IMG/VR virus record: IMGVR_UViG_3300009507_000010
From: an uncultured virus (IMG/VR IMGVR_UViG_3300009507_000010)
Lineage: Duplodnaviria; Heunggongvirae; Uroviricota; Caudoviricetes
Reading direction: 5' to 3' (one strand)
DNA: 64,000 bases
Every line of letters begins with the position of its first letter. The first letter of the stretch is position 1. Below are positions 3,001 through 18,976 of the stretch, piece by piece. The notes beneath the pieces are model-generated. The model saw only the letters and a list, made by a program, of their open reading frames with translations, was not told where the DNA came from and did no database searches. A program made the translations under genes and the position numbers.

Positions 3001-6000
3001 TAGGAATTGTTGAAGCGGAATTTAATACTATTGTTGATATTATTGAAAATGGTCCTACATCGCCTAACATTCCTACAGAAGTTGAAGGCGCATTTAATAT
3101 CAGTTACACAACTATTATGGTGTCAACTGGTGAATATAAAGAAGACAACCCAGTTATTATTCCAGACTATGTATCTATTGTTGGCGATAACTTGCGTACA
3201 ACTATTATTCGTCCGCTAAATGCTAACCAAGATATTTTCCGTATTCGTAACGGTGCTTATTTGTTAGGTGTTACATTTAAAGATGGACTAGATGCATTTA
3301 ACGTACCTAGCTTTACAGGTAGATATTGTACTGCGTTTGACGATCCGTTTGACACAGGTGTTGATCGTACTGGTTATATAGGACTAAGAGATCGTCCGCT
3401 TATTACACAGTCGCCATACATACAAAACGTATCTATTATTTCGTTCTTAGGTCTAAGCGGTTGTTTAGTAGACGGTTCAAAAGTTATTACACCGAACGTA
3501 CCGCGTTTTGCTATCGAAGCTGAAAATCCAGTATTTGGTGAAACACCTGAACAAGGTAAGTCAATGGTTGCTAACGCATATACTATGCTATCATTTGGTG
3601 GTATTGGCTGGCGCTTAACTAACGATGCATACGCACAGATCGTTTCGTGTTTCCAAATTTTCCTTGGAAATGGTTGCTGGTGTCAGTCAGGTGCTTACCT
3701 TTCTGTTACTAACTCTGCTACTAACTTTGGTCTATACGCACTACGTTCGTCAGGTTACTCTGCAAACAGCTTTGTGTTTGACCGTGGTGTTATTGCAGAA
3801 GTCGGCGCCCAAGCATCGCAGCAAAAACTTATCACAGTTGGTACTAAGCGTACTCCAGTTAACCAATTCGTTATTAGATTGTACGACGATGACGAGTACA
3901 ATAACTTAGCAAACGATATTACAAACAGCTTTAAAACTATTCCAAATATTGTTTACTTTAATGCAGGCGAACTTGGAGAATTATATGGCGATGCTGCAAA
4001 CTACGAAGTTGTAGCAGTAGGGTCAACTACATTTACAGTACAAATAGGATCTGGCAAAAACTTAGGATCTTGGGTCGAAGGCGGCACAGTTGACATAAAC
4101 GGTGCATTTAATCCAGCAGCAGTATTGTCAGCTTCGTATAATAATACAAACGGTGCTTTAGAAATTGAAGTAACTACTTTACCGAATATTGGTGACATAG
4201 TAACACTTACTACATTGACTTTTGACGGAACTAACTACCCTGTAAACGAAGAAGGTTCACTAAGTCTTGAAGACAATACTATTACTATTCCGGGACACGG
4301 CTTAGTAACAGGAGATGCATTAACATATCGCAGAAACGGTAATATTGAAATTAACGGCTTTGCAGACCAAGGTTTGTATTATGTCGAGGTTCTAACTGAT
4401 GATATTATTAGACTATATCAAGATGACTCAAGAGGATTCGTTGCAGATATTATTGACGTATCAACAGGACAACATTATTTCGAAACACAGACTGAAGAAT
4501 TCTTTATCGATGATATCATTCTTGATGCAGATAGCAATAAACTAACACACAACAAGTATCAGGTGTTAACACTTGCACCAGGAACATATAACTTTGAACC
4601 AGGTGACACTATTGAAGCAACAACTGGGGTTTATAGAAACAAGGCGTTTGTTTATACCTACGAAGCTGCAACAAGACAGCTAACTGTATCAGTTGAGAAA
4701 GCAGACAATTCAGGTTCACTAACAAGAATCTTCTTTGATGCAACTTCGATTATTGATAGAGATAGTAGTGCTATTCCGCAAAGTAATATACCTGTAACAG
4801 GATTTACTTCTAGAACAGACTTATTTACAGCAGAGTTTACAATTGATCCGACTATTGTAGGTGGCGTACTAACTAATACAGGTGCGTTAAAAGGAACATT
4901 TATTCGCTTGCATAGACCTTCAATTGTTAACAGTTCGTCACACACTTGGGAATATGCAGGTTCAGGTACAGACTATAACGCTCTACCACAGAACGGCGGT
5001 ATTACAAGAGAAGAATTTGAACAGTTTAGTGACTTACCAGGACGAGTTTACTCTTCAGGTACTAACGAACTTGGTGACTTTAAAGTTGGTGACTTCATTG
5101 TTGCAGAAAACAGAACTGGTAACATTACATTTAAAAACACAGTTACAGTTGGTGAACTTTCAGCACTGAAACTTGCAGTTTCGGATGTTGTTATTGAAGC
5201 AATTTCAACTGATCCAGGACTAGGCGACAACGAACCAGGTGGTGCTACAGATACACGTTTGATTACGCAGAATGCAGCACGTAGCTTCTTAGCAAACAGA
5301 CTAGGTGACTTCATTGACAAGAACGTATCTACTAACTCAGTTAGTGGTGCTGTTCCGCAGATGAACGCACAAGGCTTGTTAAACTCGGATATTATTCCAG
5401 CAACACGTAACTTTAGTTTGTTCACAACAGATAAGAAGTTTGGTAGATTTAACCTAACTGATGATATTCCTGCGCAGGAACCGCTACAAGGCGATATTGC
5501 ACAAGAACGTTACTCACGTACATTCTTTACATTAAGTGCGCCAATAGCATTGAATGAAGACGATGTTATTATTGAATTAAACACTGGAGCAACTGCTATT
5601 GTTGATGAAGACAACGGCGGCGCGGCTACTGTTTATCTTGCTAACATCGAAGGAACGTTTAGTAATAATATTAGCGGAAACGTACTTAATGTAAGAGGAA
5701 GTAACACTACTACATATATTACTAATACTGGTTCAAGTGAAGTACGAGACATTCAGTACACAATGGTACAAGACTCGTCGAGTCAGTTCCTAAGATACTT
5801 ACCATCAGGCGCAGCTTTTGTTAATGGACAAACCATTACAGCAGCTAATTCAAAGACACAAGGTGTAATTACCGGTCAAGTTGAAGGTGTTGCATTGGCA
5901 CTTGATCTTGGAAATATTAGTACAGGTAATGGATATGTTCCATCAACTGGTTCACAAACATATAAGGGTGTTGTACTTTCAAATGTTAGCGGAACAGGCA

Positions 6001-9000
6001 CAGGTGCTATTGCAGACATTAGTGTAACCAACGGCAAAGTTACAAACGTTGACCTTACAAGAGGCGGCAGCGGATATGCTGTTGGTAATGCATTAACTGC
6101 AACAGTTGACCAACTAGGCGGACAGAACACACAAGACTTCCAGGTTAGCATACTTGGAGTTGATAATAGAGTGTTTGTTGAGTTGCTAGCAGGAAAGTTT
6201 GTTGCTACAACAAGTTCAAATGATTATACTGAAGACGGCAACGCAGTAGTAACTACTGTACCGTTAGGAAATACAACACTTACTGCATTTAATGCTGACA
6301 CTATTGGCAACGGCGGTAATGTTGATTATCCAACTTCACGAATAACAATTAATTCGCATATATTTGATAACGGAGATGTAGTTAACTATGCTAGTTCACC
6401 AAATCCAGCAATTGGCGGATTTATACAAGGTGAAAGTTACTTTGTTAAAGTTGTTGATGCAAACACTATTGAACTTTACAACAGATACGATTTAAATGCT
6501 GCAAATAAAGTAATATTTACTTCCAGTTCTACAGGCACACATGCATTTATTATTAACTATGTTGACACACGTAAAGATCGCATTTATGCACAGGACCACG
6601 GATTTACTAACGGACAAGCATTCCGTTTTGTAGGAGCTAATCCTCCAACTGGCATGGCAAGCGGCGGATACTACTATGCTGGTACAGTAAGTCAGAATAC
6701 ATTCTCGGTACACGAATTCCAGCAAGACGCAGAAAACAGTGTTAATGGAGTAACTCAAGGTGCTATTAACTTTATTCAAACTGGTAGCGGTAGTGCAGAC
6801 TTTATTCACCAAAATATTACAATTTACGGAGAAGTTAACACATCAGGTAATGTAGAAACTAACTGGGCACTAACTGGTAGTGCAAACGTAGACGCATCAA
6901 ACATTGTGTCGGGTGTTATTAGTACATCACGTTTGGCAGCAGTTGGTACAGCGAATAGTGATACTTACTTAAAAGGTGACAGCAGTTGGGATTATGCAAC
7001 ACGTACAGTTCGTACAGCACTTAATTCACCGCTTAACATAACTGGTAACTTCTATACAAGCGGCGGTCAAAACTTCTACTTCAAGAACACACAGTTTGAT
7101 ATTGACAGAACTGATGGCACTTTAGGTAACCAAAGTTTCACTAACCTTGGTGTTGCAGCATTTAGTAAAGCACAGTTTAACGTAAACTCAGGTGAAGTTG
7201 AACTAAAAGCAGGAGTACTAGATGCAGGAACACTAGACGGACTAGATAGTCAATACTTCCTAGATCCAGGAAACTTACTAAATCCAGTTCCTGTATCACG
7301 TGGCGGTACACAGATAGATCAATATATTGCCGGGGATATGATTTATGCAACATCTCCAACAACACTAAACAGACTGCCAATTGGTAGTCAAGGTGCTGTT
7401 ATGGTTGTTGATGAATTAGGGAACCCAGCATGGTCAAATGACGTTGCTCCGTTTGTTGAAGATACTAATAACTTCGGTGTTTCAAGACCACTAGAAATAC
7501 GACATGACGTAACAAATACTCCAGCAGTTGGCATTGGTGTTGGTATGCAGTTCCAGGTTGAAACTGCTAACAATAACAGAGAAGTTGGCGGCACTATTGA
7601 CGCTGTTGCATCAGACGTAACATTTGGTTCAGAAGACTTTAGCTTTAAGTTTAACTTAATGGCAGCAGGCTTCTTAGCAGAGCGTATGGTATTAGACTCA
7701 TTAGGTAACTTAGCTATTGACGGTGACTTAAATGTTGACGGTGGTGATATTAAAACTACTAAAACAAGTGCAACTGTATACGATACTACAGTTACATCAC
7801 TAAGCATTGGTAGAGCTGCAACTTCAGTTACTATTGGCGCAGATAAAACTGGTGAACTAAGAGTACGAAATGCAACTCTAGTAGTTGGCGGTGACTCAAT
7901 AGAAACACAGCCAGTTGATGCAAAAATTAAAGCACCAAATTCACTAGGTACTAACAAGCAAGGTCCAGATTTAACTATTCAAGGCGGCGCAAGTACAGGT
8001 AGTGGCGTAGCAGGATCAGTATTCATTGATACTGGTGCTAGTGGATCAAGCGGCAGTACTTCAAATACACAAGTAAATCGTGTAGAAATTAGCGGATCAG
8101 ACAATCATACACATAACTTAGACTTTGGTAGAAGTTCACAAGGTACGCAGCAAATTGGTAAGGTTGGTGTTAAAGGTCCTATTACTGGACAGTTTAACGT
8201 TAACGGTTCGGTATTAGAACTAACGCCAGGCGCCGGTACAGGTTCGGGACAAGGTGCTAAAGTTAACATTTACGGTTCAAATAGTATCGGTTCTGGTAGT
8301 GGCATACAAAGTAGTGAACTAATTGCAAGTTTCTCAGGAGACGCTATTAGACTAAACAAAGATGTTATTACACAAGCAACTAGCTTAGGCACAAATCAAT
8401 CAACATTTGATCTTGTTAATGATACTGCAACAACACTTAATATTGGTGGCGCTGCAACAGCTATTGACATCGGTGCATCAAGTGGTTACTTGCACGTTAA
8501 CTCCGCTGACCAAGCAGTTAGTACTACAACAGGTGCGCTACGTGTAGACGGAGGCGGTAGTTTTGGTAAGAACTTGTATGTTGGTGGTAACTTAGTTGCT
8601 GCTGAACTTACACTAACTGGTGCTATTGATGGTAACAGTTACAATGTAGGCGGTATTGAAGTAATTGACACTAACAGACGCTTTATTTCAAGCGGTGGCA
8701 CAACTGGTGAACTTTCAAAAGTACACGGCATTAGCTTTGACTGGGACGGCAACTACGGCGCAGTCGGCGGTTATGTAAACCATGGTATTAGTTCACGTAA
8801 CGAAACTTGGGGAGCTAACGATAGTTTAAGTATTAACTCGTACAACAATGTTAACGTAAGACTTGATACTAACTCTAACAATGCTGCTGCAAGTACATTC
8901 TTCCGCATTAACAATGACGTAAGTCAAACTAATGGTAACATTGTACTAAGTGCAAGAGGCGACGGCAAGGTTGGTATTAACAAAGATCCAAGCGGTACTT

Positions 9001-10880
9001 ACAACTTAGATGTTGGCGGTAGCTTTAATGCTACAACTGGTTACATTAACGGTGGTGCAATTTGGACTGACGCTAATGACGGTGATGGCTCAGGCTTAAA
9101 CGCAGACTTGCTAGACGGCTTACATGCATCCAGCTTCCTACGTGTTGATACTGGTGCTGCATTTAGTGGTGGTGTATTTAAGATTAGTGCTCCTGCAACA
9201 ACAATTCAAAACACTGGCGAAGTTAACACATTACAGTTATATCAAGGCAACGGTGCTAATAGTTACGATGCATTTATGACATTCCATATTGGCGGTGACT
9301 ATGCTGTACACTTTGGTTTAGATGGAAGTACAAACGATCTAGCATACGGCGGTTGGTCAGCTGGTGCAGTTGCACATAAAGTATGGCACGCTGGTAATGA
9401 TGGTAGTGGCAGTGGACTTGATGCAGACTTGTTAGATGGACAAGATAGTGCATTCTTCCGTAACGCAAGTAATATTAATGCTGGTACTTTCCCAGATAGA
9501 TTTAGTAGTAGCGAACGTTACAACATTGGATTTATTGACGGTTACGGCGGCGATAGCTACGACAAACTGCGTGTATGGAATAGTGGTTCGTACTCAATAG
9601 GTATGCACAGTGGCCAAACAATGGGTTGGCTAAACGACTATGCTATGACATTCACAATGAATAACGATAGTGATCGTGGCTTTAAATGGCGTCATGAAAG
9701 TGATGGTGTTGCTGATGGTGCTATGGCACTTACAACAGATGGTCGTTTAACAGTTAAGCAGTTCATCTCAGTAGGTAATCAAACTACACGTTACCTAAGA
9801 GAACCAACAGGTAACTACGGTTCGATTCAGATTAGCGGTAGTGGATTTGGTAACTGGGAAGGCTTTAGCATTGACGGTCGTGCAGTATTCATGCATGACG
9901 GTGGCACTGCAACTGGTATCTTCAACGATGTAGATAACGAATGGTTGTTCTACGGTGTACACAACGCACAAACTGAAATGATGCATAATGGTAGTTGGAA
10001 AGTTCAAACACGTTCCAATGGTGCAAACATTGCAGGCGAGCTATATGTTGATAACTGGGTACGCATTGAAAGCAATTCAGGTATTTACTGGGAAGGTGGC
10101 AACTATGCTGGATGGCACATTTATCCACAAGCAACTAACAGAATCCACATGCGTTCAGCTAACAGCGGAAGTTGTGAAGTTTCTCTTGCTAACAGTGCAA
10201 ACACTATCTATGGTAGATTATATGCAGATGATGCATCACAAGGCTTCCTAAACGAAGATGGCAACTGGGCACTACGTAGCTACAACAACGACGGTGTTTC
10301 ACCTGGTTGGAGATTCTACGAAAACGGTAACGAAAGCTGGACAGGCAACCCAGGTAATGACGTTGGTAAGATTGAATATCACGCTAACAGATTCTACATT
10401 GCATCAGGTGCTAACTCCGATCGTGTTGTACAGTTTAGACGTGATGGAACAGATGTTTCATACGTTGATAACAGTGGTGTTTACCAAGGTACTGCTGCAA
10501 GTGCTAACTGGGCTGACTTGGCAGAGAAATACTTAGCTGACGAAGTTTACGCACACGGTACTGTACTTGCTATTGGTGGCGATGCTGAAGTTACATTGTT
10601 CAAACCAGGCATGAAACTAGCAGGCGTTGTTTCAACACAGCCGGGCTTGATGATGAACCAAACAGACGATAACAGAGATGATCCGATGTGGCCGTTCGTT
10701 GCACTTAAAGGTCGTGTACCAGTTATGATTAATGGTTCAGCTAAGAAAGGCCAGTATATCATTGCAGATCAAGACGGTAAAGGTCGTGCTGTAGACGAAC
10801 TAAGTACTATAGCAGAATACACTTTATTAATTGGTACTGCATTAGAAGATGGTACAGATGTAGTTGAAGTGAAGGTATAA
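3..10880 (+). CDS. Giant tail fibre/tailspike-like virion protein, 5'-truncated (>3625 aa): N-terminal helical CxRD repeats, beta-helix-like region, HG(L/F)xxG(D/Q)-type repeats, GLDADLLDG fibre motifs, C-terminal peptidase G2-like intramolecular chaperone
   Basis: The frame of ORF 510..10880 is open back to position 3 (AKSVVTNTPII...), so the real start lies outside the window. Motifs: TIMVSTGEYKEDNPVIIPDYVSIVGDNLRTTIIRP (beta-helix entry), GSGL(N/D)ADLLDG x2, C-terminal WADLAEKY...GVVST.PG...VALKGRVPV. Confidence 0.85.
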   Translation, partial: AKSVVTNTPIIDTTQVAVAQQFDGTKTATASEAATVESLGQKVVDFYDNGVGEAPNETQTQDVGLLNAETLIDNNKTFIQNEVIAFLNNKYSGFSFDAAKCSRDTGYIVDAANFDLLYSGNAESHYAGITYLNATASLVRSDQKQETLAGIDYARSLAEKVVLGQQVDYLYQTTVAQNTELTPGTQTEATTVFNNISKVYSILNNGIGTANGVVTTDAGKLNSETLIDQNQDFIKEEVIGYLTTTYPGFSYDQNKCRRDVGYILDAISYDLTHGGNNESIQAALAYYQWTAKDAVNLQLAETRAGITYAIDLAKLVIVNQDPATSYQGIFAQFKDAGNPGDATSQTILTGLGSLIDDIITDGDSTTIGLDIDPNNSVPSAVQDTVNANAILAANKEFIQAEVVAFIEENFGNFNYDPVACERDVGLIVDAVKFDIEHGGDAESIFAGISYYNNVTTGTGEITGDAIEVLRKQLQPTLDAVEYARDLLANVVLQNAVSNLYQSGTTQTFDGTNPSTTSVAQTVFNRANTILTILKNGLGTTNSFTKTTGIGALNTEALLQANTAFLQEEVLGYINNQYPGLTYDQASCRRDVELIVDAIAYDLTHGGNTNSIAAGTAYYRQAAALVVTGQSTETLAGLVHLKELAQKVVRNVTVDVTYSATPQVFDGANPGDVTSANTVGTLADIVIDIVDDGLSPYINITANGALTTDQDILDAGALIASNKLFIQKEVVAYVDGSWINFSSNYNQTTCSRDVGLILDAINFDLTWGGTSNAVAAGIAYFKQSSQLTLQRQLVQTIDGIMHAIRLAQQVVENYPVVSFQNTAAQVTDNLNPGSAEAITKIAELGALIEDIVIDGASATAGVTIFGNGIVPNSNIAVQNAADLIALNRSFIQAEVVSYINTYFTNFTYDTDFCYRDVGLFIDAIQYDLIFGGNERAIEAGKSYYIGNTIVIPGQEFQTVLANRYFQSLVDNILQNIVNKKLYQNVTGQITDPTKIVDGTTLGIVEAEFNTIVDIIENGPTSPNIPTEVEGAFNISYTTIMVSTGEYKEDNPVIIPDYVSIVGDNLRTTIIRPLNANQDIFRIRNGAYLLGVTFKDGLDAFNVPSFTGRYCTAFDDPFDTGVDRTGYIGLRDRPLITQSPYIQNVSIISFLGLSGCLVDGSKVITPNVPRFAIEAENPVFGETPEQGKSMVANAYTMLSFGGIGWRLTNDAYAQIVSCFQIFLGNGCWCQSGAYLSVTNSATNFGLYALRSSGYSANSFVFDRGVIAEVGAQASQQKLITVGTKRTPVNQFVIRLYDDDEYNNLANDITNSFKTIPNIVYFNAGELGELYGDAANYEVVAVGSTTFTVQIGSGKNLGSWVEGGTVDINGAFNPAAVLSASYNNTNGALEIEVTTLPNIGDIVTLTTLTFDGTNYPVNEEGSLSLEDNTITIPGHGLVTGDALTYRRNGNIEINGFADQGLYYVEVLTDDIIRLYQDDSRGFVADIIDVSTGQHYFETQTEEFFIDDIILDADSNKLTHNKYQVLTLAPGTYNFEPGDTIEATTGVYRNKAFVYTYEAATRQLTVSVEKADNSGSLTRIFFDATSIIDRDSSAIPQSNIPVTGFTSRTDLFTAEFTIDPTIVGGVLTNTGALKGTFIRLHRPSIVNSSSHTWEYAGSGTDYNALPQNGGITREEFEQFSDLPGRVYSSGTNELGDFKVGDFIVAENRTGNITFKNTVTVGELSALKLAVSDVVIEAISTDPGLGDNEPGGATDTRLITQNAARSFLANRLGDFIDKNVSTNSVSGAVPQMNAQGLLNSDIIPATRNFSLFTTDKKFGRFNLTDDIPAQEPLQGDIAQERYSRTFFTLSAPIALNEDDVIIELNTGATAIVDEDNGGAATVYLANIEGTFSNNISGNVLNVRGSNTTTYITNTGSSEVRDIQYTMVQDSSSQFLRYLPSGAAFVNGQTITAANSKTQGVITGQVEGVALALDLGNISTGNGYVPSTGSQTYKGVVLSNVSGTGTGAIADISVTNGKVTNVDLTRGGSGYAVGNALTATVDQLGGQNTQDFQVSILGVDNRVFVELLAGKFVATTSSNDYTEDGNAVVTTVPLGNTTLTAFNADTIGNGGNVDYPTSRITINSHIFDNGDVVNYASSPNPAIGGFIQGESYFVKVVDANTIELYNRYDLNAANKVIFTSSSTGTHAFIINYVDTRKDRIYAQDHGFTNGQAFRFVGANPPTGMASGGYYYAGTVSQNTFSVHEFQQDAENSVNGVTQGAINFIQTGSGSADFIHQNITIYGEVNTSGNVETNWALTGSANVDASNIVSGVISTSRLAAVGTANSDTYLKGDSSWDYATRTVRTALNSPLNITGNFYTSGGQNFYFKNTQFDIDRTDGTLGNQSFTNLGVAAFSKAQFNVNSGEVELKAGVLDAGTLDGLDSQYFLDPGNLLNPVPVSRGGTQIDQYIAGDMIYATSPTTLNRLPIGSQGAVMVVDELGNPAWSNDVAPFVEDTNNFGVSRPLEIRHDVTNTPAVGIGVGMQFQVETANNNREVGGTIDAVASDVTFGSEDFSFKFNLMAAGFLAERMVLDSLGNLAIDGDLNVDGGDIKTTKTSATVYDTTVTSLSIGRAATSVTIGADKTGELRVRNATLVVGGDSIETQPVDAKIKAPNSLGTNKQGPDLTIQGGASTGSGVAGSVFIDTGASGSSGSTSNTQVNRVEISGSDNHTHNLDFGRSSQGTQQIGKVGVKGPITGQFNVNGSVLELTPGAGTGSGQGAKVNIYGSNSIGSGSGIQSSELIASFSGDAIRLNKDVITQATSLGTNQSTFDLVNDTATTLNIGGAATAIDIGASSGYLHVNSADQAVSTTTGALRVDGGGSFGKNLYVGGNLVAAELTLTGAIDGNSYNVGGIEVIDTNRRFISSGGTTGELSKVHGISFDWDGNYGAVGGYVNHGISSRNETWGANDSLSINSYNNVNVRLDTNSNNAAASTFFRINNDVSQTNGNIVLSARGDGKVGINKDPSGTYNLDVGGSFNATTGYINGGAIWTDANDGDGSGLNADLLDGLHASSFLRVDTGAAFSGGVFKISAPATTIQNTGEVNTLQLYQGNGANSYDAFMTFHIGGDYAVHFGLDGSTNDLAYGGWSAGAVAHKVWHAGNDGSGSGLDADLLDGQDSAFFRNASNINAGTFPDRFSSSERYNIGFIDGYGGDSYDKLRVWNSGSYSIGMHSGQTMGWLNDYAMTFTMNNDSDRGFKWRHESDGVADGAMALTTDGRLTVKQFISVGNQTTRYLREPTGNYGSIQISGSGFGNWEGFSIDGRAVFMHDGGTATGIFNDVDNEWLFYGVHNAQTEMMHNGSWKVQTRSNGANIAGELYVDNWVRIESNSGIYWEGGNYAGWHIYPQATNRIHMRSANSGSCEVSLANSANTIYGRLYADDASQGFLNEDGNWALRSYNNDGVSPGWRFYENGNESWTGNPGNDVGKIEYHANRFYIASGANSDRVVQFRRDGTDVSYVDNSGVYQGTAASANWADLAEKYLADEVYAHGTVLAIGGDAEVTLFKPGMKLAGVVSTQPGLMMNQTDDNRDDPMWPFVALKGRVPVMINGSAKKGQYIIADQDGKGRAVDELSTIAEYTLLIGTALEDGTDVVEVKV
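303..2800 (+). repeat. Six ~155-167 aa protein repeats with core CxRD(V/T)xx(I/F)(V/L/I)DA...D(L/I)xxxG
   Basis: Cys codons at 303, 768, 1260, 1761, 2247, 2736 (spacing 465-501 bp). Confidence 0.9.
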
Positions 10881-10883
10881 TTT

Positions 10884-11258
10884 ATGGGAAACATGACAAG
10901 AGCCTCGGCAAGAGATTACTTTACCGGAAATGCCGGGGCTCAGTTACGAGGATTTGACAAAACTATTAACTTTGCTGCTACAGTGTATGTTACAGGAAAC
11001 GTGGACGGTGGCCGTGCTGGAACTGCATATGGTAATAGACGTTATGAATACGTAAATGCACCTAACAGTGATTACAACGGAAATGTTTATCCAAATACTA
11101 CACAAGTAGATGCAACCCAATTAATTGATCAAGCACTTGATGCAATACAACGAACTTGCGATTTAATTGAAGGTCGTATTAGCAATAGTTACTTTGATTG
11201 GAGAATATGTCACGCAAGTTGTCATTATAGCTGCCACGGATCAAGAGGGAGAAGATAA
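10884..11258 (+). CDS. Putative RiPP-like precursor/substrate protein A (C-terminal CHASCHYSCHGSRGRR)
   Basis: 124 aa; starts 3 nt after the tail-fibre stop; triple C-H-x-S repeat at the C-terminus; upstream of a radical SAM array. Confidence 0.7.
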   Translation: MGNMTRASARDYFTGNAGAQLRGFDKTINFAATVYVTGNVDGGRAGTAYGNRRYEYVNAPNSDYNGNVYPNTTQVDATQLIDQALDAIQRTCDLIEGRISNSYFDWRICHASCHYSCHGSRGRR

Positions 11259-11430
11259 TGGCAGGATTAAGTCATGCACAATTAGAAGCTCGGTACTATG
11301 GTAATGCATATACAAGAATACGCACATTTGATAAAACTATTAACGTAGCAGCTACAGTATATTATGCGCGATATAATGGTAGTGGCCAAGGAACTGCATA
11401 TGGTAATAGACGTTATGAATACGTAAATGC
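11019..11430 (+). repeat. 41-bp identical direct repeat shared by the two precursor genes (11019-11059 and 11390-11430)
   Basis: GGAACTGCATATGGTAATAGACGTTATGAATACGTAAATGC occurs twice. Confidence 0.9.
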
Positions 11431-11641
11431 CGGGCAAGGTGCCTTTGCTAATACAGATATTCCAAATGGTGTAGGTGACAATTTATTAATAAGAGCAGGT
11501 GATATACAAACATTTGCTTCAAATGCAATCAGCAGAACAGTAAATGGCATAGAAGGAAGAATTACAAATTCGTATTTCGACTTTAGAATATGCCATTCAA
11601 GTTGCCATTATAGCTGCCACGGCAGCAGAGGGAGAAGATAA
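11258..11641 (+). CDS. Putative RiPP-like precursor/substrate protein B (C-terminal CHSSCHYSCHGSRGRR), paralog of A
   Basis: 127 aa; TAATG-coupled to A; shares FDKTINxAATVY, GTAYGNRRYEYVNA and IEGRIxNSYFDxRICHxSCHYSCHGSRGRR. Confidence 0.7.
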   Translation: MAGLSHAQLEARYYGNAYTRIRTFDKTINVAATVYYARYNGSGQGTAYGNRRYEYVNAGQGAFANTDIPNGVGDNLLIRAGDIQTFASNAISRTVNGIEGRITNSYFDFRICHSSCHYSCHGSRGRR

Positions 11642-12703
11642 ATGATAGGCGAAAGTTTTTACTATATCAGTAATAAAAAATACTTAGGACGATCTACTGC
11701 AATGCTTTCGGCATTATCAGAAAGTCCGTGGAGCGGAGTTCAATCAAGACGTATTAGCATAATAATGCCAGATGGACATAGTGCAGTGCAAGAAAGTTAT
11801 GCATCGTCGTTAAGTAATGATTATCCATTAGCAAACGCTGAAGATATGATAACATTTGCTAATTATAGCGATATTGATTCTTGGGAATATCTCAATAACA
11901 ATACTAAGGAATTTTTATTATTTGAATCAGCGCATGAGTTTTTGAAGATGTATGCAAAGTATACAGCTTCGCTATTAAAAACAACAACTAACAAAGATGT
12001 TAAACAAGTTGTTAAGGAATTTATTGTATTAGCAACTACTAGAGATGTAACATACTCGACAATGGGCGATTACAATGAAGGCGATATCAATGCAGCAGTA
12101 GAGGAAGTATTTGCAGAAAACGTATTCTATGATATTCCTAATGCAACCAGTAAGCACTGGGGTTACGATATTCTTTTCTTTATTAATGACAAGTACAATG
12201 AAAATGAAACCTATGCAGAAATTAATGTAACAACAACTGCATTTTTAAGAGAAAAGTTTACAGTACATAGTGATAAAATGATTCATGAAGTTATTAGTAT
12301 GTTACAATCTAAAATTGGTTATGTAAGTGTTATTAACAATATTATTGATTGGTTTAATAATAACGGAAATACAGAATGGAATAGAGCTGAGTTTGTGAAA
12401 GATGTATTTCAAAATACGAATCGCATGCAAGCACTATACAGATTACGTGACTTTTGGAACGATGTAGGTTCTAATAAAGAATTAATGACATTAATTGACG
12501 GGCATGACGAATGGGAATACGAAGAAGTATATAAAGAGTTTGCTAGAACTATTCCAATTGTCATACAAATTGCAGAGGGCGGATTTAATTTTGCAAATAA
12601 CGAAGCACTAAGAAGTGCATGGAGCGAGGTAGAGTTTTTCTATAAACGTAAAAGTCGTATTCCTTATTTGCTGTTTAAAATATTACCACTTGTACCGGAG
12701 TAA
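11642..12703 (+). CDS. Hypothetical protein in radical SAM cluster
   Basis: 353-aa ORF abutting precursor B; no motif recognised. Confidence 0.75.
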   Translation: MIGESFYYISNKKYLGRSTAMLSALSESPWSGVQSRRISIIMPDGHSAVQESYASSLSNDYPLANAEDMITFANYSDIDSWEYLNNNTKEFLLFESAHEFLKMYAKYTASLLKTTTNKDVKQVVKEFIVLATTRDVTYSTMGDYNEGDINAAVEEVFAENVFYDIPNATSKHWGYDILFFINDKYNENETYAEINVTTTAFLREKFTVHSDKMIHEVISMLQSKIGYVSVINNIIDWFNNNGNTEWNRAEFVKDVFQNTNRMQALYRLRDFWNDVGSNKELMTLIDGHDEWEYEEVYKEFARTIPIVIQIAEGGFNFANNEALRSAWSEVEFFYKRKSRIPYLLFKILPLVPE

Positions 12704-12705
12704 AA

Positions 12706-13413
12706 ATGACACAAGAAAATTACACACTGCCACTAAGTCCAACAGATTTAGCAGAAATATATAAAATAAAAACAAGCTCGGAAGATTACGTTCTCAAGGT
12801 TGATTATTTTAAAAGTAAGGAAGTACTGTCAGTAAAACATATACTCGTATATATTGCTAACACTAACTTTAAAGTACAGTTTGAAGGCATTGACGATGAA
12901 TTAATAAATGAATATATAATTTCTAATTTTATGGTTGATTGTCCGTTACTTTCTAGATACATTACGTTAATTGCTAAACGTAAACTAGGACAGGAATATA
13001 ATCAAGTTGACCAAGCATTAAATACTATAATGTCTGATGCTGACATTGATTCATATTTAGAAAAGAATGGCGAATTATTTGACGACTTGTTAGATAAACT
13101 AAAACATGTTACACTGTTTTGTTTAGATCAAGCTGGCAAATATGCCGACAAGTACAAAGAATTTATACCAGAAGAGATTGAACGTGCAGATGAAGAAACT
13201 CAAATTGGACTAAATATTGTATATATTGCAACATACTCGTTGGACTTGTTGTATTTGTTAGGTAATAAATTTGGTCCGTGGCCTACTAATAAATTAAATG
13301 TTAGAGTGTTTAATGATGTTAGTAAGTATCAAGGAGCAGACCTATATAATACATTACTAAAATATGGTGTTGCAACTAGTATGTTAGAATTATTTGACGA
13401 GGAATCAGCATAA
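12706..13413 (+). CDS. Hypothetical protein in radical SAM cluster
   Basis: 235-aa ORF; stop overlaps the start of the first radical SAM gene; no motif recognised. Confidence 0.75.
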   Translation: MTQENYTLPLSPTDLAEIYKIKTSSEDYVLKVDYFKSKEVLSVKHILVYIANTNFKVQFEGIDDELINEYIISNFMVDCPLLSRYITLIAKRKLGQEYNQVDQALNTIMSDADIDSYLEKNGELFDDLLDKLKHVTLFCLDQAGKYADKYKEFIPEEIERADEETQIGLNIVYIATYSLDLLYLLGNKFGPWPTNKLNVRVFNDVSKYQGADLYNTLLKYGVATSMLELFDEESA

Positions 13414-14594
13414 TGACAATGCAACAATCATATTGTAAACAGATGAAGTATAGTGGGCCAGAAAGTCTACCTCCTTCACACGCCCAGAAGTTTGACGTAT
13501 TAATTAACTTTGAAGGCCTTACTGGCTGCGAATATGGTTGTTTAGGATGTTTTGTTAACAAGAATCAAGACGTTACTACAATGAATCAAATGCTAACAAC
13601 TGCAAAAGAACTTGCAGATGGTGTAAAGCGTACAGGTTTAAACTTACGTGAGTTTGTTGTAGGTCCGACAGATTTATTCTCTGCGTCAAATACTGATAGC
13701 ATTCTTAATAATACTATTATACAAGATATAATGCGCGAACACACTAATGCACGTATTGCTACACCTAGTAAGATAGACGGCGTGAGCATGGAAAGGTTGC
13801 GAGAAGTATTTGCAATACTTGATGATCCTTCTAAGTATAGAGACGAAATGATCATTGAGTTTATTATGCCAGTTGGCGATGTTGATCGTATACTAAATGA
13901 CGAAGAATACTTTAAAGATATTAAATCAAAATTAGAATTCTTTAAATCCGAAACTCCCAAGAAAATTGACTGGAGTTGGACATTACAAGCAAGTAATGTT
14001 ATGCAAAAACATCTAACTAAAGAAAACTACAATAAACTGCTATATAAGATTCTTGATGAATATGAAACTATTCTAGAAATGAACCCAGCGTTCTCTAGAG
14101 CACCGAGTGTATTGCACCAGCGTAAGAACTTAGTAGCATGGAATAACTTCCTAAAAGAAGTAGTAGATCAAGACAATTTTAAAGACGTTACAATGAGTAT
14201 GGCTAACTTATATTGTAACTCCATGAACTTCATAGGGTTAACTGTTGTTCCTGGATTAGAGACGCCACGTGTATTTTTAAATGTAATGTTACACGAACAA
14301 GCATTCTTTACACAGCATAGGGATTTAGAAGTAACAGGACTAAGTTTTGAAGAAATTCTAGTCAAGAGGGATCACTTAATAGCACAAGGGTTAGCTAAGT
14401 CGTCTAAAGTTAAGGATTGTGCAGATTGCAAATATGCAGTAGCATGTGCAAACAGACTAATATTCCAAGCACAAGATGCAATGAACATGCACGAATGTTT
14501 AATGCCGCTAGAAGTATTAGAACTGTATAATCCGTTTGTTACTAGTAACGAACAGTGGAACGACGATGCTTTAAAAATCGTCAATGCTCGTTAA
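13413..14594 (+). CDS. Radical SAM protein (GPTD-type paralog 1) with C-terminal Cys cluster
   Basis: CEYGCLGCF (CxxxCxxC); VVGPTDLF; C-terminal CADCKYAVAC...C. Confidence 0.85.
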   Translation: MTMQQSYCKQMKYSGPESLPPSHAQKFDVLINFEGLTGCEYGCLGCFVNKNQDVTTMNQMLTTAKELADGVKRTGLNLREFVVGPTDLFSASNTDSILNNTIIQDIMREHTNARIATPSKIDGVSMERLREVFAILDDPSKYRDEMIIEFIMPVGDVDRILNDEEYFKDIKSKLEFFKSETPKKIDWSWTLQASNVMQKHLTKENYNKLLYKILDEYETILEMNPAFSRAPSVLHQRKNLVAWNNFLKEVVDQDNFKDVTMSMANLYCNSMNFIGLTVVPGLETPRVFLNVMLHEQAFFTQHRDLEVTGLSFEEILVKRDHLIAQGLAKSSKVKDCADCKYAVACANRLIFQAQDAMNMHECLMPLEVLELYNPFVTSNEQWNDDALKIVNAR

Positions 14595-15612
14595 CCTAAA
14601 CTCAACTCCTACAGGATTTAACAATTATATAGAAGGCATAAGCCCTAAGGATAATAACTTTCTTAGGACAGAAGTTCATGCTGATATATTACATGGATGC
14701 AGTCAAAAGTGTCCAGGGTGTTTCATTCCTAGAAAAAATCTTACTAATGCTGATCATCTTACAACACTATGCGATATATTGGAATCTAGTGCATATACAC
14801 CTGATGATGTTGTAATAGGTCCTACTGATATATTTGATGCTGAAAACTTTTGGGACTTAATGGACCATCCTAGTATGAAACGTTTATACAGTATTGCAGC
14901 ACTAAGTTTTAACTCAACACTACTACAGGACTACGACACTGTACTTGCCAAACACACTAAGATTTGGAGTCTTTACGAAGGATTGGATCGTACGCCTGAT
15001 ATAGATTTTAAAATAGTACTTGATATTACTAGATATTTACAAGGCGATATTGAAGACATGTGTCGCAAACTAGAACTTTTTAAACAAGGTAGTGTACAGT
15101 TTAGAGTAAACTATTACCCGGGTATATTTGATCGTGTGAGCTATAATGATTTATGTGATATGATTAAAGAAGACTTCAATGCTCCAGTAGTTATATTGCC
15201 AGGTTTCTTAACAGACAGAAATAGTCGAGGTAAAGTTAGTAAATTACTTCCGATGTTTTTAGACGAGCTACGTAAACAAGATATAAGACCCGAATACAAA
15301 CAGTTATACACGATGTTTGATGCAAACTTTAATAGTCACGGATGTACCAATTATAGTTTTTACAACGGCAGCTTGTATATGAATCCATTTGTGTTTGACG
15401 GAATATTGCAGCGTACACAAGAATTTAAAGTAGACAATCTTAATACTAAAAACTTTTTAGCTGAAAATTTATCATATGCAGCATCTACTAAAGAATGTGA
15501 AAGTTGCGAATACTTAATGAGCTGTGCAGAGCGCAATGTATTGTTCTATATGAAGTCGAGAAATTTAACAGAGTGTGTTACAGTAAAGGAGTATACAAAT
15601 GCCGGTCATTAA
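14584..15612 (+). CDS. Radical SAM protein (GPTD-type paralog 2)
   Basis: CSQKCPGCF; VIGPTDIF; C-terminal CESCEYLMSC...C. Confidence 0.85.
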   Translation: MLVNLNSTPTGFNNYIEGISPKDNNFLRTEVHADILHGCSQKCPGCFIPRKNLTNADHLTTLCDILESSAYTPDDVVIGPTDIFDAENFWDLMDHPSMKRLYSIAALSFNSTLLQDYDTVLAKHTKIWSLYEGLDRTPDIDFKIVLDITRYLQGDIEDMCRKLELFKQGSVQFRVNYYPGIFDRVSYNDLCDMIKEDFNAPVVILPGFLTDRNSRGKVSKLLPMFLDELRKQDIRPEYKQLYTMFDANFNSHGCTNYSFYNGSLYMNPFVFDGILQRTQEFKVDNLNTKNFLAENLSYAASTKECESCEYLMSCAERNVLFYMKSRNLTECVTVKEYTNAGH

Positions 15613-16780
15613 AAATAACTTGTATTATGAGCTTACTACAGAAACGCAAACTAAGCCAGTAAGTGCAGTAAAAATACAGCTTGATGTGTTAGACGGGTGT
15701 GTACACGCTTGCCCCGGGTGTTTTGTACATCGTAGAGGAAATGCACCTGAAGTTGATCATTTAAAAGATTGCCGAAACTTTGTAAAACGAATTACAGATG
15801 TAGGTGTTTTAGTTGACGAAATACTCATAGGCCCAACTGACTGTTTATCTAGTGAAAACTTTTATGAAGTAATGAGCAATACTGATTTGTTAGCAATGAT
15901 AAATGAAAACTCTCCTATACTTGCTTTTACTACTACATTTTTAGAAAAGGATCTAACACATTTAGATCGTTGGATTACGTTTTTACATGACAATGTGAAT
16001 ACTGACACTGAAATAGAAATTGGCATAGCAACTGATCCTATGCGATATAAAGATATACTTTATATACAGCAATTAAAACGCTGTATTGCATATGTCGACC
16101 AGCATTTAAAACATGAATGTACATATACGTTTATTGTTAATATTAGAAACTATGACCTAGACTACGAGCAAATACATGATTTTGTAGTGAAGCAATTTGA
16201 TACAACAATTGACTTTATTCCAAGTGTAAGTCGCAGTCATAAAGCAAGTATCATACTACCTACACTAAATCAATTCAATGAATTTTTTGAAGCATTACCA
16301 GAAGATACTCATTTAAATAATATTATGGTAGATCACACACATGCTGGGCATAATTATACCGTATTAAATTTTAAAGGAGGACAGTGGTATCTAAGTCCGT
16401 TCCTTTATGAAAATATGGCATTGTATGATAATATGTTTGCAGTAAACAATCTAGACGAAGCATATGATCTTACTGTGTCACAAGTAGATCGAGCTAAAGG
16501 AACAGTGTGCGAAAACTGTGATTTATTTTTTAGTTGCTACAATAGAAAAATTATTTTATTACGTGACTACTTGGGTACTAAAGAGTGTATAGCGCCTAAG
16601 CAAAATATGTTAAAAAATATACATAACTATAATAAAAGTGCTGCTGAAATGTATGACTGGACAGGATATACTGTTGAGGGTGATAAGCAAGGATATCGTA
16701 AAAAATTCTTAATAACTAAAGACGGCGATGAAAGATTAGATGAAATAAAAAAGGTGTATCATGTCAATCGTAAAGGATAA
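15599..16780 (+). CDS. Radical SAM protein (GPTD-type paralog 3)
   Basis: CVHACPGCF; LIGPTDCL; C-terminal CENCDLFFSC...C. Confidence 0.85.
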   Translation: MPVIKNNLYYELTTETQTKPVSAVKIQLDVLDGCVHACPGCFVHRRGNAPEVDHLKDCRNFVKRITDVGVLVDEILIGPTDCLSSENFYEVMSNTDLLAMINENSPILAFTTTFLEKDLTHLDRWITFLHDNVNTDTEIEIGIATDPMRYKDILYIQQLKRCIAYVDQHLKHECTYTFIVNIRNYDLDYEQIHDFVVKQFDTTIDFIPSVSRSHKASIILPTLNQFNEFFEALPEDTHLNNIMVDHTHAGHNYTVLNFKGGQWYLSPFLYENMALYDNMFAVNNLDEAYDLTVSQVDRAKGTVCENCDLFFSCYNRKIILLRDYLGTKECIAPKQNMLKNIHNYNKSAAEMYDWTGYTVEGDKQGYRKKFLITKDGDERLDEIKKVYHVNRKG

Positions 16781-17855
16781 TTATTGGGAAGCAACAATGG
16801 GTCATAAAGACTATAATATCAGTGTAGGTGATGCACATGATATAAAAGTAAACATGACAGTTGACGTCCTTGACGGGTGCATACATGCTTGTGAAGGATG
16901 CTTTGTTAATCGCAGAAGACAGCAAGCATCTAATGATCAGTTTTCCAAAGTACTAGCTGCACAAAAAATGTTTAATCAAAATAACATTCGATTTAGCAGC
17001 ATAATACTTGGTCCTACTGATGTCTTTGGTAATTTAAATATACAGGACGTTTTAAAATTTGATAGTTTTAAAGAAGTAGTAAGTAACTGCACCACTGTCG
17101 GAATGATTAGTACACTGCTTAACGATGATACTCATATCAATCCTATAATAGATGGCTTCAACGCTATACCTAAATGTGAAGGTTTCTTATATGACTTTCA
17201 AGTAGTTATTGATGTTAAACGAGCACTTGATCCAGAATATAGAAAGAATCACTTAGCACGTATACATGATGTTTTAAATAGATTTACTGATCCCTTAAAC
17301 TTTACTATAATTTTTAATATGGATCAAGACTTTGCTGAGTTTGGAAATCTAGCAGAAATATGTCGTGTAATAAAAGAAGAGTACGACACTATTGTAGAGC
17401 CTATTCCTAGTTATCAGCGTTATGGTAAAGGAAAAATACACAACGATATTATTAGGGCGTGGGTTGATATAATAGAAGACACGTTCACTAAAGAAAATCA
17501 AGAATACCTAGCCATGACAATAGCTGACAAAAATCAAGGTGGCGCACTTGAATTAAATTATACATATAGTGCAGGAGAATTTTATTCAACTCCGTTTGTT
17601 TATGAAGTTGCACTTATACGTGACGAAAAGTTTAGAGTAAAAGATCCAACAGATATTAAAAGTTGGACTAGCTTAAAAACAGACTTGTATATAGATCAGC
17701 TTGCGTATTCCCCTAAAACGCTGCATTGTGAAACATGCAATCGTCGTGAAATATGTTTGAAAAAACACGTATTAAGTTATATGGAGCATTTTGACTTTAC
17801 GGAGTGTGTGTATCCTAGAGAAGTATTAAATGAATATAGGCCGTTAACATGTTAA
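16761..17855 (+). CDS. Radical SAM protein (GPTD-type paralog 4)
   Basis: CIHACEGCF; ILGPTDVF; C-terminal CETCNRREIC...C. Confidence 0.85.
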   Translation: MSIVKDNYWEATMGHKDYNISVGDAHDIKVNMTVDVLDGCIHACEGCFVNRRRQQASNDQFSKVLAAQKMFNQNNIRFSSIILGPTDVFGNLNIQDVLKFDSFKEVVSNCTTVGMISTLLNDDTHINPIIDGFNAIPKCEGFLYDFQVVIDVKRALDPEYRKNHLARIHDVLNRFTDPLNFTIIFNMDQDFAEFGNLAEICRVIKEEYDTIVEPIPSYQRYGKGKIHNDIIRAWVDIIEDTFTKENQEYLAMTIADKNQGGALELNYTYSAGEFYSTPFVYEVALIRDEKFRVKDPTDIKSWTSLKTDLYIDQLAYSPKTLHCETCNRREICLKKHVLSYMEHFDFTECVYPREVLNEYRPLTC

Positions 17856-18976
17856 AAAATGATTGGCAAACTTATCTGCAAAATAATAAACAATCTCTTT
17901 CACCAGAGGGGTTTATAGATCCTGCTGATCAAAACAAGATAAAAATTCAGTTAATGCTTGAAATATTAGAAGGTTGTGCTTACAACTGTTCGGGCTGTTT
18001 TGTTAAAAGACGAAAAAACTTTGGACAGGGATTAGGGCTAGACTATGCTGCACAACTTGTTGACGAGTTAACTGATCAATATGTATTAGATGATATTATT
18101 GTAGGACCTACTGATTTCTTCTCCAGCGGAAATATAATACAAGTCTTAGAAGATCCTAGATTTAAAAAGATAGTAAACGCATTACCCGAAGACGGCGGAC
18201 TACAGCATAACTGTTCAATAGACTTTTTTATAGGAAATGATCGAGTAAAAGAAATTATTACTTATATTGAAAATAGCTATCTAAAGGATCGTCCGTTTGA
18301 TGTACAAATTGCAGTAGACTTGCATATGTTAGATAATCCACATGTACACGATTTAATAAGTGAACGCCTAGAAGCTATGGAAAATAGTTCTGTAGAATAT
18401 GAAGTAAGCCTGCTGTGTAATATAACTCAAGACATTGACGACGATGTATTAGACAAAATTGAAACTGTTAGAAACAAGTGGAATACTGTTGTTGAATGGG
18501 GGCCTAGTTTAGTACGTGCCATGACAAATAGGCCTGATAAAATGTTAGGTATGATACAAGGATGGAATGAAAGTATAGGAAAGGTTGCTAGCATAGATGA
18601 AAAGCGTTTTACACAAAACTTTATATGGCAACAGAGCGATACTAGTCATAAAAACTTTAATGAAGTAATTGTTACAGTTAATAATGACCAGTTATATATA
18701 GTTCCGTTTTTATATGAAAATTCTCCTATATATCATCCTAGTTTCGAAGTACCGATAGGCGAAAATATATTAAACAGTATTTTTGATAAAAGGCACGAAT
18801 TGCAATTAACACAATATGCTAACATTCCTAACTTAGTATGCAACGGATGTAAGTATGTAGAAAATTGTAGCTCTAGATTAATACCAACGCTAATCACAGA
18901 TGTAGTTAAGCATAACCAGTGTCTAATAAATAAAAACATAATGGCATTATACGACAATATAGGATATAATAAATGA
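17849..18976 (+). CDS. Radical SAM protein (GPTD-type paralog 5)
   Basis: CAYNCSGCF; IVGPTDFF; C-terminal CNGCKYVENC...C. Confidence 0.85.
   Translation: MLKNDWQTYLQNNKQSLSPEGFIDPADQNKIKIQLMLEILEGCAYNCSGCFVKRRKNFGQGLGLDYAAQLVDELTDQYVLDDIIVGPTDFFSSGNIIQVLEDPRFKKIVNALPEDGGLQHNCSIDFFIGNDRVKEIITYIENSYLKDRPFDVQIAVDLHMLDNPHVHDLISERLEAMENSSVEYEVSLLCNITQDIDDDVLDKIETVRNKWNTVVEWGPSLVRAMTNRPDKMLGMIQGWNESIGKVASIDEKRFTQNFIWQQSDTSHKNFNEVIVTVNNDQLYIVPFLYENSPIYHPSFEVPIGENILNSIFDKRHELQLTQYANIPNLVCNGCKYVENCSSRLIPTLITDVVKHNQCLINKNIMALYDNIGYNK

Follow-up and report, generated by a model that had tools for sequence, protein, structure and literature searches.

A 64,000-nucleotide stretch of an uncultured tailed virus (IMG/VR record IMGVR_UViG_3300009507_000010; Caudoviricetes), hereafter called the window, contains two adjacent small genes, A and B, whose products end in nearly identical 16-residue tails of the form (C-H-x-S)3-RGRR, next to a cassette of radical S-adenosylmethionine (SAM) enzyme genes. 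We observed that tailed genes and these enzymes are inherited together, and that a homolog of A and B is listed in the virion proteome of a cultured phage. On balance we consider it somewhat probable that the tail undergoes covalent radical SAM modification on a protein that is retained in the virion. A and B are probably structural proteins of a large phage particle, forming parts of a fiber, whisker, or other appendage. The system is real, widespread, and uncharacterized.

Two paralogs share a Cys-His tail

The window is a large myophage-like contig with fiber, tail-sheath-like, and terminase-like open reading frames (ORFs). A and B are translationally coupled and lie downstream of a giant fiber gene that stops 3 nucleotides upstream of A (coordinates in Table 1); the fiber gene is context and no fixed part of the cassette. 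The two proteins are 54% identical overall, and their tails match at 15 of 16 residues, each with Cys at i, i+4, and i+8, His-x-Ser after every Cys, and a terminal RGRR, as an earlier note made from the sequence of the window had described. The tail codons differ by five synonymous changes, one of which is a TCA/AGC serine switch, and one replacement, which argues against recent copying of the DNA and for a match maintained in the protein. In A, the Arg-Gly-Arg-Arg codons double as a Shine-Dalgarno-like site for B. The pattern CHxxCHxxCH occurs twice in the six frames of the window, both times in these tails. The earlier note had also described the rest of the two proteins as diverged; this holds for three stretches (5/21, 1/10, and 8/39 identical residues) and not for the blocks that they separate (12/14, 14/14, and 12/14, the last abutting the tail), and before the tail 52 of 112 columns are identical.

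Neither protein has a Pfam or NCBIfam match near the cut-off, and the sole family match, phrog_35144 (unknown function), covers their last 32 to 50 residues. Judged by eye, A and B have no hydrophobic N-terminal stretch. Metatranscriptome reads from four runs of one study gave low, flat, and patchy cover over positions 8000 to 24500 that is indistinguishable from DNA carry-over.

The tail motif is conserved across a large family

A word-indexed search returned 18 proteins, all with the tail, and a profile of 20 short members gathered 181 protein clusters at 50% identity. The pattern CH..C[HY]..CH..R.RR forms the end of 141 of the 150 best profile matches, a count that is partly circular because the profile includes the tail. 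Among the other nine, one has two repeats and eight lack the R.RR end (two stop after two repeats, five align through the N-terminal part alone, and one is an unrelated repeat protein). Body profiles stripped of the tail give a non-circular count: all 53 of their matches in loci picked by an enzyme carry the tail, and in other loci 4 of 123 lack it, all four being one split gene with the tail on its second part. The expectation that the tail would be kept among homologs was thus borne out. In the split gene (L072:8692-10060; also L073, L074, and L077), a Gly_rich_2 domain (E 1.8e-10) is joined to the first ~55 residues of the family protein, and the remainder and tail form a separate 140-amino-acid (aa) ORF.

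From a logo of 174 representative ends, chosen from 272 distinct ones, the family motif reads at the sequence level as (C-H-x-S/N/A)3-R-G-R-R. The tyrosine of the middle repeat, which the earlier note had made part of the motif, is present in 4 of the 174 ends and is incidental. The residue at His+2 is Ser in 459 cases, Asn in 41, Ala in 18, Gln in 2, and Lys and Cys in 1 each (n = 522), and never Gly or Thr; the residue at His+1 varies among small ones (S, G, A, N, T), with Gly 114 times and Thr 44 times in the same 522. Outside the tail, Cys makes up 0.3% of family residues. The 29 residues preceding the tail average 0.72 bits, far less than the tail itself, and the family alignment contains no conserved cleavage motif upstream of it. 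The repeat number is usually three, with two in P0043, four in the plasmid pQBR103, and 14 in L075. Expanded tails of up to 14 Cys-His repeats are found at L075:9359-10060 and L095:3-362, where groups of repeats are split by NVPV or NVV spacers. A heme-binding CX3CH reading was rejected, as the number of Cys is often odd and A and B lack an export signal.

Part of the tail DNA could be kept for translation of the next gene: a Shine-Dalgarno-like core lies within the last six codons of 99 of 119 tails, and an ATG lies at most 10 nucleotides from the stop in 108 of 119. RxRR is nevertheless encoded with at least one CGN arginine codon in 54 of the 119 and with CGN alone in 8, several of which have a separate ribosome site downstream. 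Since the motif serine is drawn from both codon families and RxRR persists with CGN codons, the constraint appears to act on the protein.

Tailed genes are inherited with radical SAM enzymes

A radical SAM gene with the CxxxCxxC motif flanks 76 of 77 viral loci picked by their tail, and the one miss has just 2.4 kb of downstream sequence. A search with the core enzyme rs8 yielded 271 viral loci. In the best 80 of these, many of which are the same contigs as in the tail-picked set, the tail is present in 58, including 30 of 30 loci with both flanks at least 9.5 kb long and 28 of the 50 in which a flank is truncated. The proposed link between tail and radical SAM enzymes therefore recurs in loci picked from either side.

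Two types of locus can be told apart. In the short type, to which the window belongs, 24 of 26 loci have two tailed genes and 24 of 26 have at least five radical-SAM-like paralogs marked by a GPTD motif. In the long type, all 36 loci have a single tailed gene, with zero to two GPTD paralogs. Among 24 long-type loci compared, rs7, rs8, rs9, and the gene for a 235-aa accessory protein are present in 24, rs6 in 23, a 139-aa accessory gene in 22, and the cupin gene in 20. A tree of 50 short-type bodies has both paralogs kept in both phage lineages; it fits either one or two duplications because long branches meet.

The tail is predicted to project from a folded body

Family members have a median length of 189 aa, the shortest being about 120 aa and the longest 609 aa. 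The model of a 190-aa member, based on 97 sequences, is confident (predicted local distance difference test [pLDDT] 90, predicted template modeling score [pTM] 0.84) and contains a sheet and three long helices. Residues 167-175 form the last strand, which ends at the tail's first Cys, and confidence drops to 76 and then 56 over the two final blocks. By this model, the first ~108 residues of A and B are predicted to fold as a body with the tail projecting from the last strand. In an alignment that includes the tail, B matches the long type over the 106 C-terminal columns of the latter (P 99.6%). An iterated tail-free profile built from the long type recovered gp170 of Agrobacterium phage Atu_ph07 in round 1 (E 7e-9) and window B (2.4e-8) and A (1e-3) in round 4; none of 482 decoys (reversed or shuffled sequences) was matched, and of 1,797 natural pieces 2 were, both belonging to the split gene. 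The suggestion that the N-terminal part is a folded domain is thus upheld by the model of a relative and the profile alignment to the long type.

Insertions of 80 to 120 residues lie between the two strands in P0021 and P0028, and a constant core with a variable insert is the pattern one would expect of a surface-exposed subunit. Among the 97 long-type members, the near-invariant Arg R90 is the sole body residue conserved at 90% or more. Structure searches gave no viral match for the window B model (pLDDT 58) at E ≤ 0.001 and no PDB match by Foldseek for the 190-aa model at E ≤ 0.001, which is not proof of a new fold; the best VIA match of that model, among 48,161 chains, has Z 3.8 and a root mean square deviation of 4.6 over 122 aligned residues, and the protein has no sequence match to the PDB under E 0.11. 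The body fold also matches three BFVD models from Myoviridae sp. ctijX18 (A0A8S5USJ7, A0A8S5USJ8, and A0A8S5USV2; 504-660 aa) at E 1e-5 to 4e-3. ESM Atlas matches of B to relaxase clusters (0.84-0.89) were rejected as within the chance range, and the Atlas search gave no match for the L066 protein.

A homolog is listed in the virion proteome of Atu_ph07

Core enzymes are encoded in 15 phage records, including the Chiangmaivirus phages RSL2, RSF1, and FLC6, Agrobacterium phage Atu_ph07, Sinorhizobium phage Phosso, and Pseudomonas phage pPa_SNUABM_DT01, and each of the four cultured-phage regions examined holds one tailed gene. In Atu_ph07 this gene encodes gp170, a 296-aa protein with large insertions and the tail CHSSCHASCHNSRSRR, in which its only three Cys are found. 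Its profile match and its likeness to the L066 model (Foldseek E 4.7e-7, TM 0.58) identify gp170, by sequence and modeled structure, as a true homolog of the window family.

Table S5 of the Atu_ph07 virion study (PMC6102473) lists gp170 with 8 unique peptides and 35.16% coverage in gel bands 1 to 9, with its peak in band 1 and a mass of 31.89 kDa, which equals the mass that we computed for the tailed ORF. Eight cassette neighbors (gp164-169, 171, and 172) are absent from that table. The trend of the table places band 1 at the high-mass end. Among its 140 rows gp170 is the largest upward outlier (expected band, 8), and among the 34 proteins of 25 to 40 kDa with at least three peptides it alone peaks in bands 1 to 3. 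Atu_ph07 particles are reported to bear hairy whiskers, to which the accessible text of PMC6102473 does not tie gp170.

ORF70 of Ralstonia phage RP31 (125 aa), which lies beside a different radical SAM cluster, was rejected as a homolog (profile comparison P 1% and 3%). A 125-aa RP12 protein, probably its counterpart, gave a weak fold match (E 0.18), and RP31 ORF70 is absent from the 32 virion proteins of RP31. The RP31 cluster (L082:4173-11743; ORF70-76) holds radical SAM genes and an MgoB-like protein in the same slot behind YomR-annotated genes, and its 125-aa ORF contains His-x-His and no Cys-His tail.

The tail occurs in bacteria and megaplasmids

A scan of bacterial genomes returned at least 14 loci. 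At least six of them, labeled Bdellovibrionales or Bdellovibrionaceae, have the tail and at least three core enzymes among bacterial genes. In one, from an uncultured Bdellovibrio (L090, 4478-8220), three Peptidase_S74 fiber genes lie directly upstream of the cassette; their products have pilin-like N termini, with weak pilin N-methyl matches in two of the three. Among the matches listed, the others are four phage-like contigs in genome bins, as judged by their flanks, two chance matches, and one short contig with an expanded tail.

Against plasmids, rs9 matched 24 records at 24-32% identity, rs8 had no match at 1e-30, and the L066 protein had none at E 10. In pQBR103, a type IV pilus operon is followed by a radical SAM region (Table 1), whose genes are relatives of rs8 and rs9, with 24-26% identity to the latter, and which also holds genes for a phosphoenolpyruvate-utilizing enzyme, a 2-oxoglutarate (2OG)-Fe(II) oxygenase, and a 124-aa protein ending in CHSACHGACHGACHGARGWR, with four repeats and an RGWR end. 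Phage-family profiles match neither the body of this protein nor the accessory genes. Its hydrophobic N-terminal stretch could be an export signal. Homologs of the tailed gene occur in 129 plasmid records, 128 of them from Pseudomonas, and the tail was confirmed also in pBT2101. A Vibrio plasmid locus (L178) has related enzymes and no tail within 12 kb. Judged by sequence, the tail is portable between unrelated bodies, and it adjoins appendage genes in three settings, not in all.

Possible roles of the tail

In the explanation that we favor, the (C-H-x-S)3-RGRR tail of A and B would be both the substrate and the recognition tag of the adjoining cassette, whose four core radical SAM enzymes, two or three accessory proteins, and iron oxygenases are inherited with the tailed genes. 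The ~108-residue body, predicted to be a helix, beta-hairpin, and helix, would present the tail from its last strand. Within the infected cell, the radical SAM enzymes would abstract hydrogen in the tail and form links from His(i) to the C-beta of Ser, Asn, or Ala at i+2, Cys thioethers, or both, and the oxygenases may add hydroxylations. The protein would not be cut to a peptide and would instead be built into the particle in a sodium dodecyl sulfate-resistant, high-mass form, with the enzymes staying out of the particle; both features are seen in the homolog gp170 alone. The modified tail may then stiffen, lock together, or arm the appendage. The absence of Gly and Thr at His+2 is consistent with the rule of three-residue cyclophane formation, in which residue i is joined to the C-beta of residue i+2. 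By analogy with characterized enzymes, the repeat would suit both chemistries, through its His with a never-Gly residue at His+2 and through its Cys. HxsA, discussed below, sets a precedent for a His-x-Ser repeat in a folded protein as a radical SAM target.

A bolder and more tentative extension, to which we give a modest chance, is that (CHxS)n-RGxR is a portable maturation tag through which radical SAM enzymes covalently join appendage subunits, in phages and bacteria alike. Joining of subunits would explain why the 32 kDa gp170 of the "hairy" Atu_ph07 runs at the top of the gel, which disulfides would explain equally. If true, large phages build crosslinked whiskers or fiber parts, and Bdellovibrionaceae and Pseudomonas megaplasmids treat fiber or type IV pilus parts alike.

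Several observations weigh against modification on a retained virion protein. The virion evidence comes from one homolog, and the gel-band test was post hoc. According to PMC6102473, the Atu_ph07 stock was purified with polyethylene glycol and its proteome includes RecA-like, single-stranded-DNA-binding, and ribonucleotide reductase proteins, so gp170 could have been carried over. The loading buffer, as described there, includes no named reductant, and all Cys of gp170 are in the tail; disulfides or aggregation could therefore explain the position in band 1. Table S5 contains no peptide list, so detection of a tail peptide cannot be read from it, and two further proteins, gp321 and gp616 (32-36 kDa; 2 and 1 peptides), also peak in the top band. 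On the genomic side, single-copy cassettes mostly adjoin rs9 and not a fiber gene, and three Bdellovibrionaceae loci (L085-L087) have no evident fiber gene in the flanks retrieved. RSL2 gp68 is tailed, yet its body is not linked to the family by the tail-free profile (E 0.34-8.5), and the L009 body is likewise unlinked at the threshold of that profile. The C, H, and R positions of the logo are partly imposed by the search pattern, and maturase scores of 39 to 43 bits, about one-tenth of the cut-offs, cannot assign a chemistry. Separately, we note that gp321 and gp616 might join gp170 in a high-mass complex.

We considered whether the tail might instead be an unmodified metal or cofactor site, with the cassette making a cofactor or small molecule to be carried by the tail or the particle. 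Such a role would account for Cys and His being kept in every repeat of a family that is otherwise nearly devoid of Cys and sits well with a repeat number that varies from 2 to 14; a period of four would place Cys and His on adjacent helix faces. However, by itself it offers no account of the exclusion of Gly and Thr at His+2, of the fixed terminal RxRR, or of the need for four to nine radical SAM genes, which score best to peptide maturases, and the cassette holds no recognizable substrate-activating or small-molecule genes; we regard this role as unlikely. The earlier note had cast the tail as the core of a leader-core precursor, as in a classical RiPP (a ribosomally made peptide that is modified after translation), where the body would be a long leader and the modified 16-mer would be cut off and released as a bioactive peptide. 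The sharp rise in conservation at the tail, its lower predicted order relative to the body, and the resemblance of the cassette to peptide-maturation clusters are in line with this framing. It is not supported by the relatives: in the confident model of one, the body is a domain whose last strand ends at the first Cys, and across the family the length varies about fivefold with insertions inside the body, and no cleavage motif is conserved; moreover, no protease or exporter is recognizable in the cassette, and gp170 appears in bands 1 to 9, at or above its full-length mass and mostly above monomer mass. Release of a RiPP thus appears very unlikely.

The tail could also act within the cell as a matured, basic effector, through DNA binding, superinfection exclusion, or counter-defense, with gp170 merely copurified. 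HxsA, which has basic His-x-Ser repeats, binds DNA, and blocks phage DNA entry (PMC13128918), the possible export signal of the megaplasmid version, and the non-structural proteins in the Atu_ph07 preparation all lend themselves to this idea. It fits poorly with A and B, which lack both a peptidoglycan-binding domain and a hydrophobic N terminus and lie within a fiber operon, and with the eight peptides of gp170 over nine bands as against none of its eight cassette neighbors, and we think it quite unlikely. Lastly, the tail may be a mere docking or assembly tag that guides enzymes acting on the body or the neighboring fiber, with RGRR kept in part as a ribosome-binding site. The same type of tail on the unrelated megaplasmid body and the frequent Shine-Dalgarno-like cores and nearby start codons agree with such a tag; the persistence of RxRR without purine-rich codons and the near absence of a common target in the body, where R90 alone is conserved, do not, and of the explanations weighed here we hold this one the least probable.

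Genes of the cassette and its surroundings

The window's features are collected in Table 1. Of the core enzymes, rs9 alone exceeds the TIGR04085 SPASM cut-off, with rs8 (18.9 bits) and rs6 (11 bits) below it. The GPTD paralogs may be noncatalytic partners or enzymes of altered chemistry. The 353-aa protein shows a weak profile likeness to a 345-390 aa gene of single-copy cassettes (hhalign P 26%, E 7e-4), and the profiles of the 235-aa, 139-aa, and 345-390 aa accessory families have no PDB match better than E 0.25. None of the 14 cassette genes scanned belongs to a protease or exporter family, although a host or distant protease is possible. No cassette enzyme reaches the cut-off of any named maturase family, the best NCBIfam scores being those of rs8 to DynA (39 of 450 bits) and rs9 to PapB (42.9 of 340), two maturases that form crosslinks. 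Some cassettes include a B12-binding radical SAM gene (L083:13319-15022; Pfam matches below cut-off), which suggests an added methylation step.

Table 1. Positions of the tailed genes, the cassette, and related features (window coordinates unless a locus is given)
Feature	Position	Strand	Remarks
Giant tail-fiber-like gene	510-10880	+	3456 aa; phrog_5342 tail fiber protein, E 8.9e-219
Paralog A	10884-11258	+	124 aa; folded body (predicted) and (CHxS)3-RGRR tail
Tail of A	11208-11258	+	16 codons and stop; CHASCHYSCHGSRGRR
Paralog B	11258-11641	+	127 aa; predicted helix, long beta-hairpin, helix, and tail (low-confidence model)
Tail of B	11591-11641	+	16 codons and stop; CHSSCHYSCHGSRGRR
Accessory protein	11642-12703	+	353 aa; no family
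Core accessory protein	12706-13413	+	235 aa; no family
Five divergent radical-SAM-like paralogs	13413-18976	+	CxxxCxxC kept; GPTD replaces GGE; C-terminal Cys cluster
Core radical SAM enzyme rs6	18973-20181	+	phrog_1802, E 2.7e-24
Core accessory protein	20066-20485	-	139 aa; no family
Core radical SAM enzyme rs7	20466-21383	-	Pfam Radical_SAM 32.6 bits (cut-off 29.5)
Core radical SAM enzyme rs8	21376-22410	-	56-61% identical to cultured jumbo phage homologs
Core radical SAM/SPASM enzyme rs9	22410-23438	-	TIGR04085 SPASM 28.7 bits (cut-off 27)
Cupin/JmjC-like protein	23425-23901	-	JmjC_2 23.3 bits (cut-off 22)
2OG-Fe(II) oxygenase	23885-24415	-	PF13759, E 9e-18
pQBR103 region	L177:11079-30972		type IV pilus operon, then at least eight radical SAM/SPASM genes

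The fiber gene has a feature of its own. At positions 768-2750 it encodes five repeats of ~165 aa with Cys-x-Arg-Asp-Val-(Gly/Glu) at residues 87, 251, 418, 580, and 743, and the repeats weakly match the alpha subunits of phycoerythrin and phycocyanin (E 0.003 and 0.03). The Cys motif resembles the bilin-attachment site of phycobiliproteins, and a pigment-binding or antenna-mimicking domain is possible.

Significance

With 271 viral loci encoding a core enzyme and 181 protein clusters, the system is frequent among large phages from marine and soil habitats. This wide occurrence, at a genome cost of up to 13 kb, implies that it probably serves attachment or particle stability. In Chiangmaivirus phages, Atu_ph07, and Pseudomonas megaplasmids, the tailed proteins are candidate substrates of radical SAM clusters that had lacked an explanation. 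New crosslinking chemistry is likely to come from a set of four to nine divergent enzymes for a single 16-residue tag.

Comparison with known systems

A literature search, mostly outside subscription journals and preprint supplements, returned no description of the tail system, and in the literature searched we found no radical SAM maturation of a virus particle protein. Radical SAM genes of this kind are named without function in PMC8066314, PMC11898562, and PMC5468394; PMC11242549 contains none, and a word search of the accessible text of a jumbo phage survey (PMC7824862) did not find the word "radical". The megaplasmid radical SAM region is treated in PMC4989453 and in bioRxiv 10.64898/2026.03.27.714766, the accessible part of the latter leaving the role of these genes to be determined and not mentioning the tailed gene. 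This "arylsulfatase/SAM" region of pQBR103, pQBR57, and pBT2436-like megaplasmids resembles the phage loci in having a 124-aa tailed gene among radical SAM genes behind a type IV pilus operon and differs in its four repeats, RGWR end, and unrelated body.

Judged against curated sequence cut-offs, the phage system belongs to none of the HXS, CXXX, ranthipeptide, or triceptide families. With the CXXX-repeat system (TIGR04115) it shares a Cys at every fourth residue, small neighboring residues, and several radical SAM genes. CXXX precursors carry many more Cys, whereas the phage tail has three, with a fixed His and RGRR; the TIGR04115 score is 29.9 of 350 bits, and no CXXX precursor model matches. 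Ranthipeptide enzymes and QhpD link the sulfur of a Cys to a neighboring residue at its C-beta or C-gamma, and QhpD acts on a protein subunit that is kept (PMC11002830). Like the ranthipeptide systems of PapB and CteB/SCIFF, the cassette has a SPASM radical SAM enzyme, rs9. The known acceptors of ranthipeptide enzymes and QhpD are Asp, Glu, Thr, and Asn, whereas the phage repeat offers His and Ser, and scores for PapB (42.9/340), the SCIFF maturase CteB (20.9/425), and the QhpD type (25.3/453) are below cut-off.

The triceptide enzymes HaaB, ScaB, YhhB, MscB, and XncB join an aromatic residue i to the C-beta of residue i+2, with known cyclophane pairs including His-Ala (HaaB/ScaB), Phe-Ser, and Trp/Phe-Asn (PMC11002830). 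The phage His-x-(Ser/Asn/Ala) units fit this rule, with Gly at i+2 in 0 of 522. Triceptides and the dynobactin system differ in having short leader-core peptides and one maturase, and they leave the Cys of the phage repeat unexplained; scores to 3-CyFE maturases (YhhB 33.3/445, FxsB 29.5/370, AmcB 25.7/425, GrrM/OscB 16.8/310) are under the cut-offs.

The HXS system (HxsA-D; TIGR03976-03979) has a similar design, in which a folded protein, as opposed to a short peptide, has His-x-Ser repeats and depends on radical SAM enzymes. HxsA is modified within its repeat in dependence on two such enzymes, an unexplained +8 Da change maps inside one repeat, and the repeats are rich in basic residues (PMC13128918). 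The earlier note's link to HxsA stands as an analogy and not as homology: neither A, B, nor five long homologs match the HxsA model (NCBIfam, E up to 1), rs9 and rs8 score far below the HxsB and HxsC cut-offs (33.5 of 370 and 22.8 of 267.9 bits), the 353-, 235-, and 139-aa accessory proteins have no HxsD match, and A and B contain no peptidoglycan-binding domain, as no Pfam domain exceeds its cut-off. Each phage tail does contain three H-x-S units, spaced four apart with Cys. Compared with HXS, the phage tails place a Cys before each His-x-Ser, repeat with a period of four, and stand at the C terminus with an RGRR end, in a viral system with four to nine radical SAM genes, oxygenases, and a homolog in virions.

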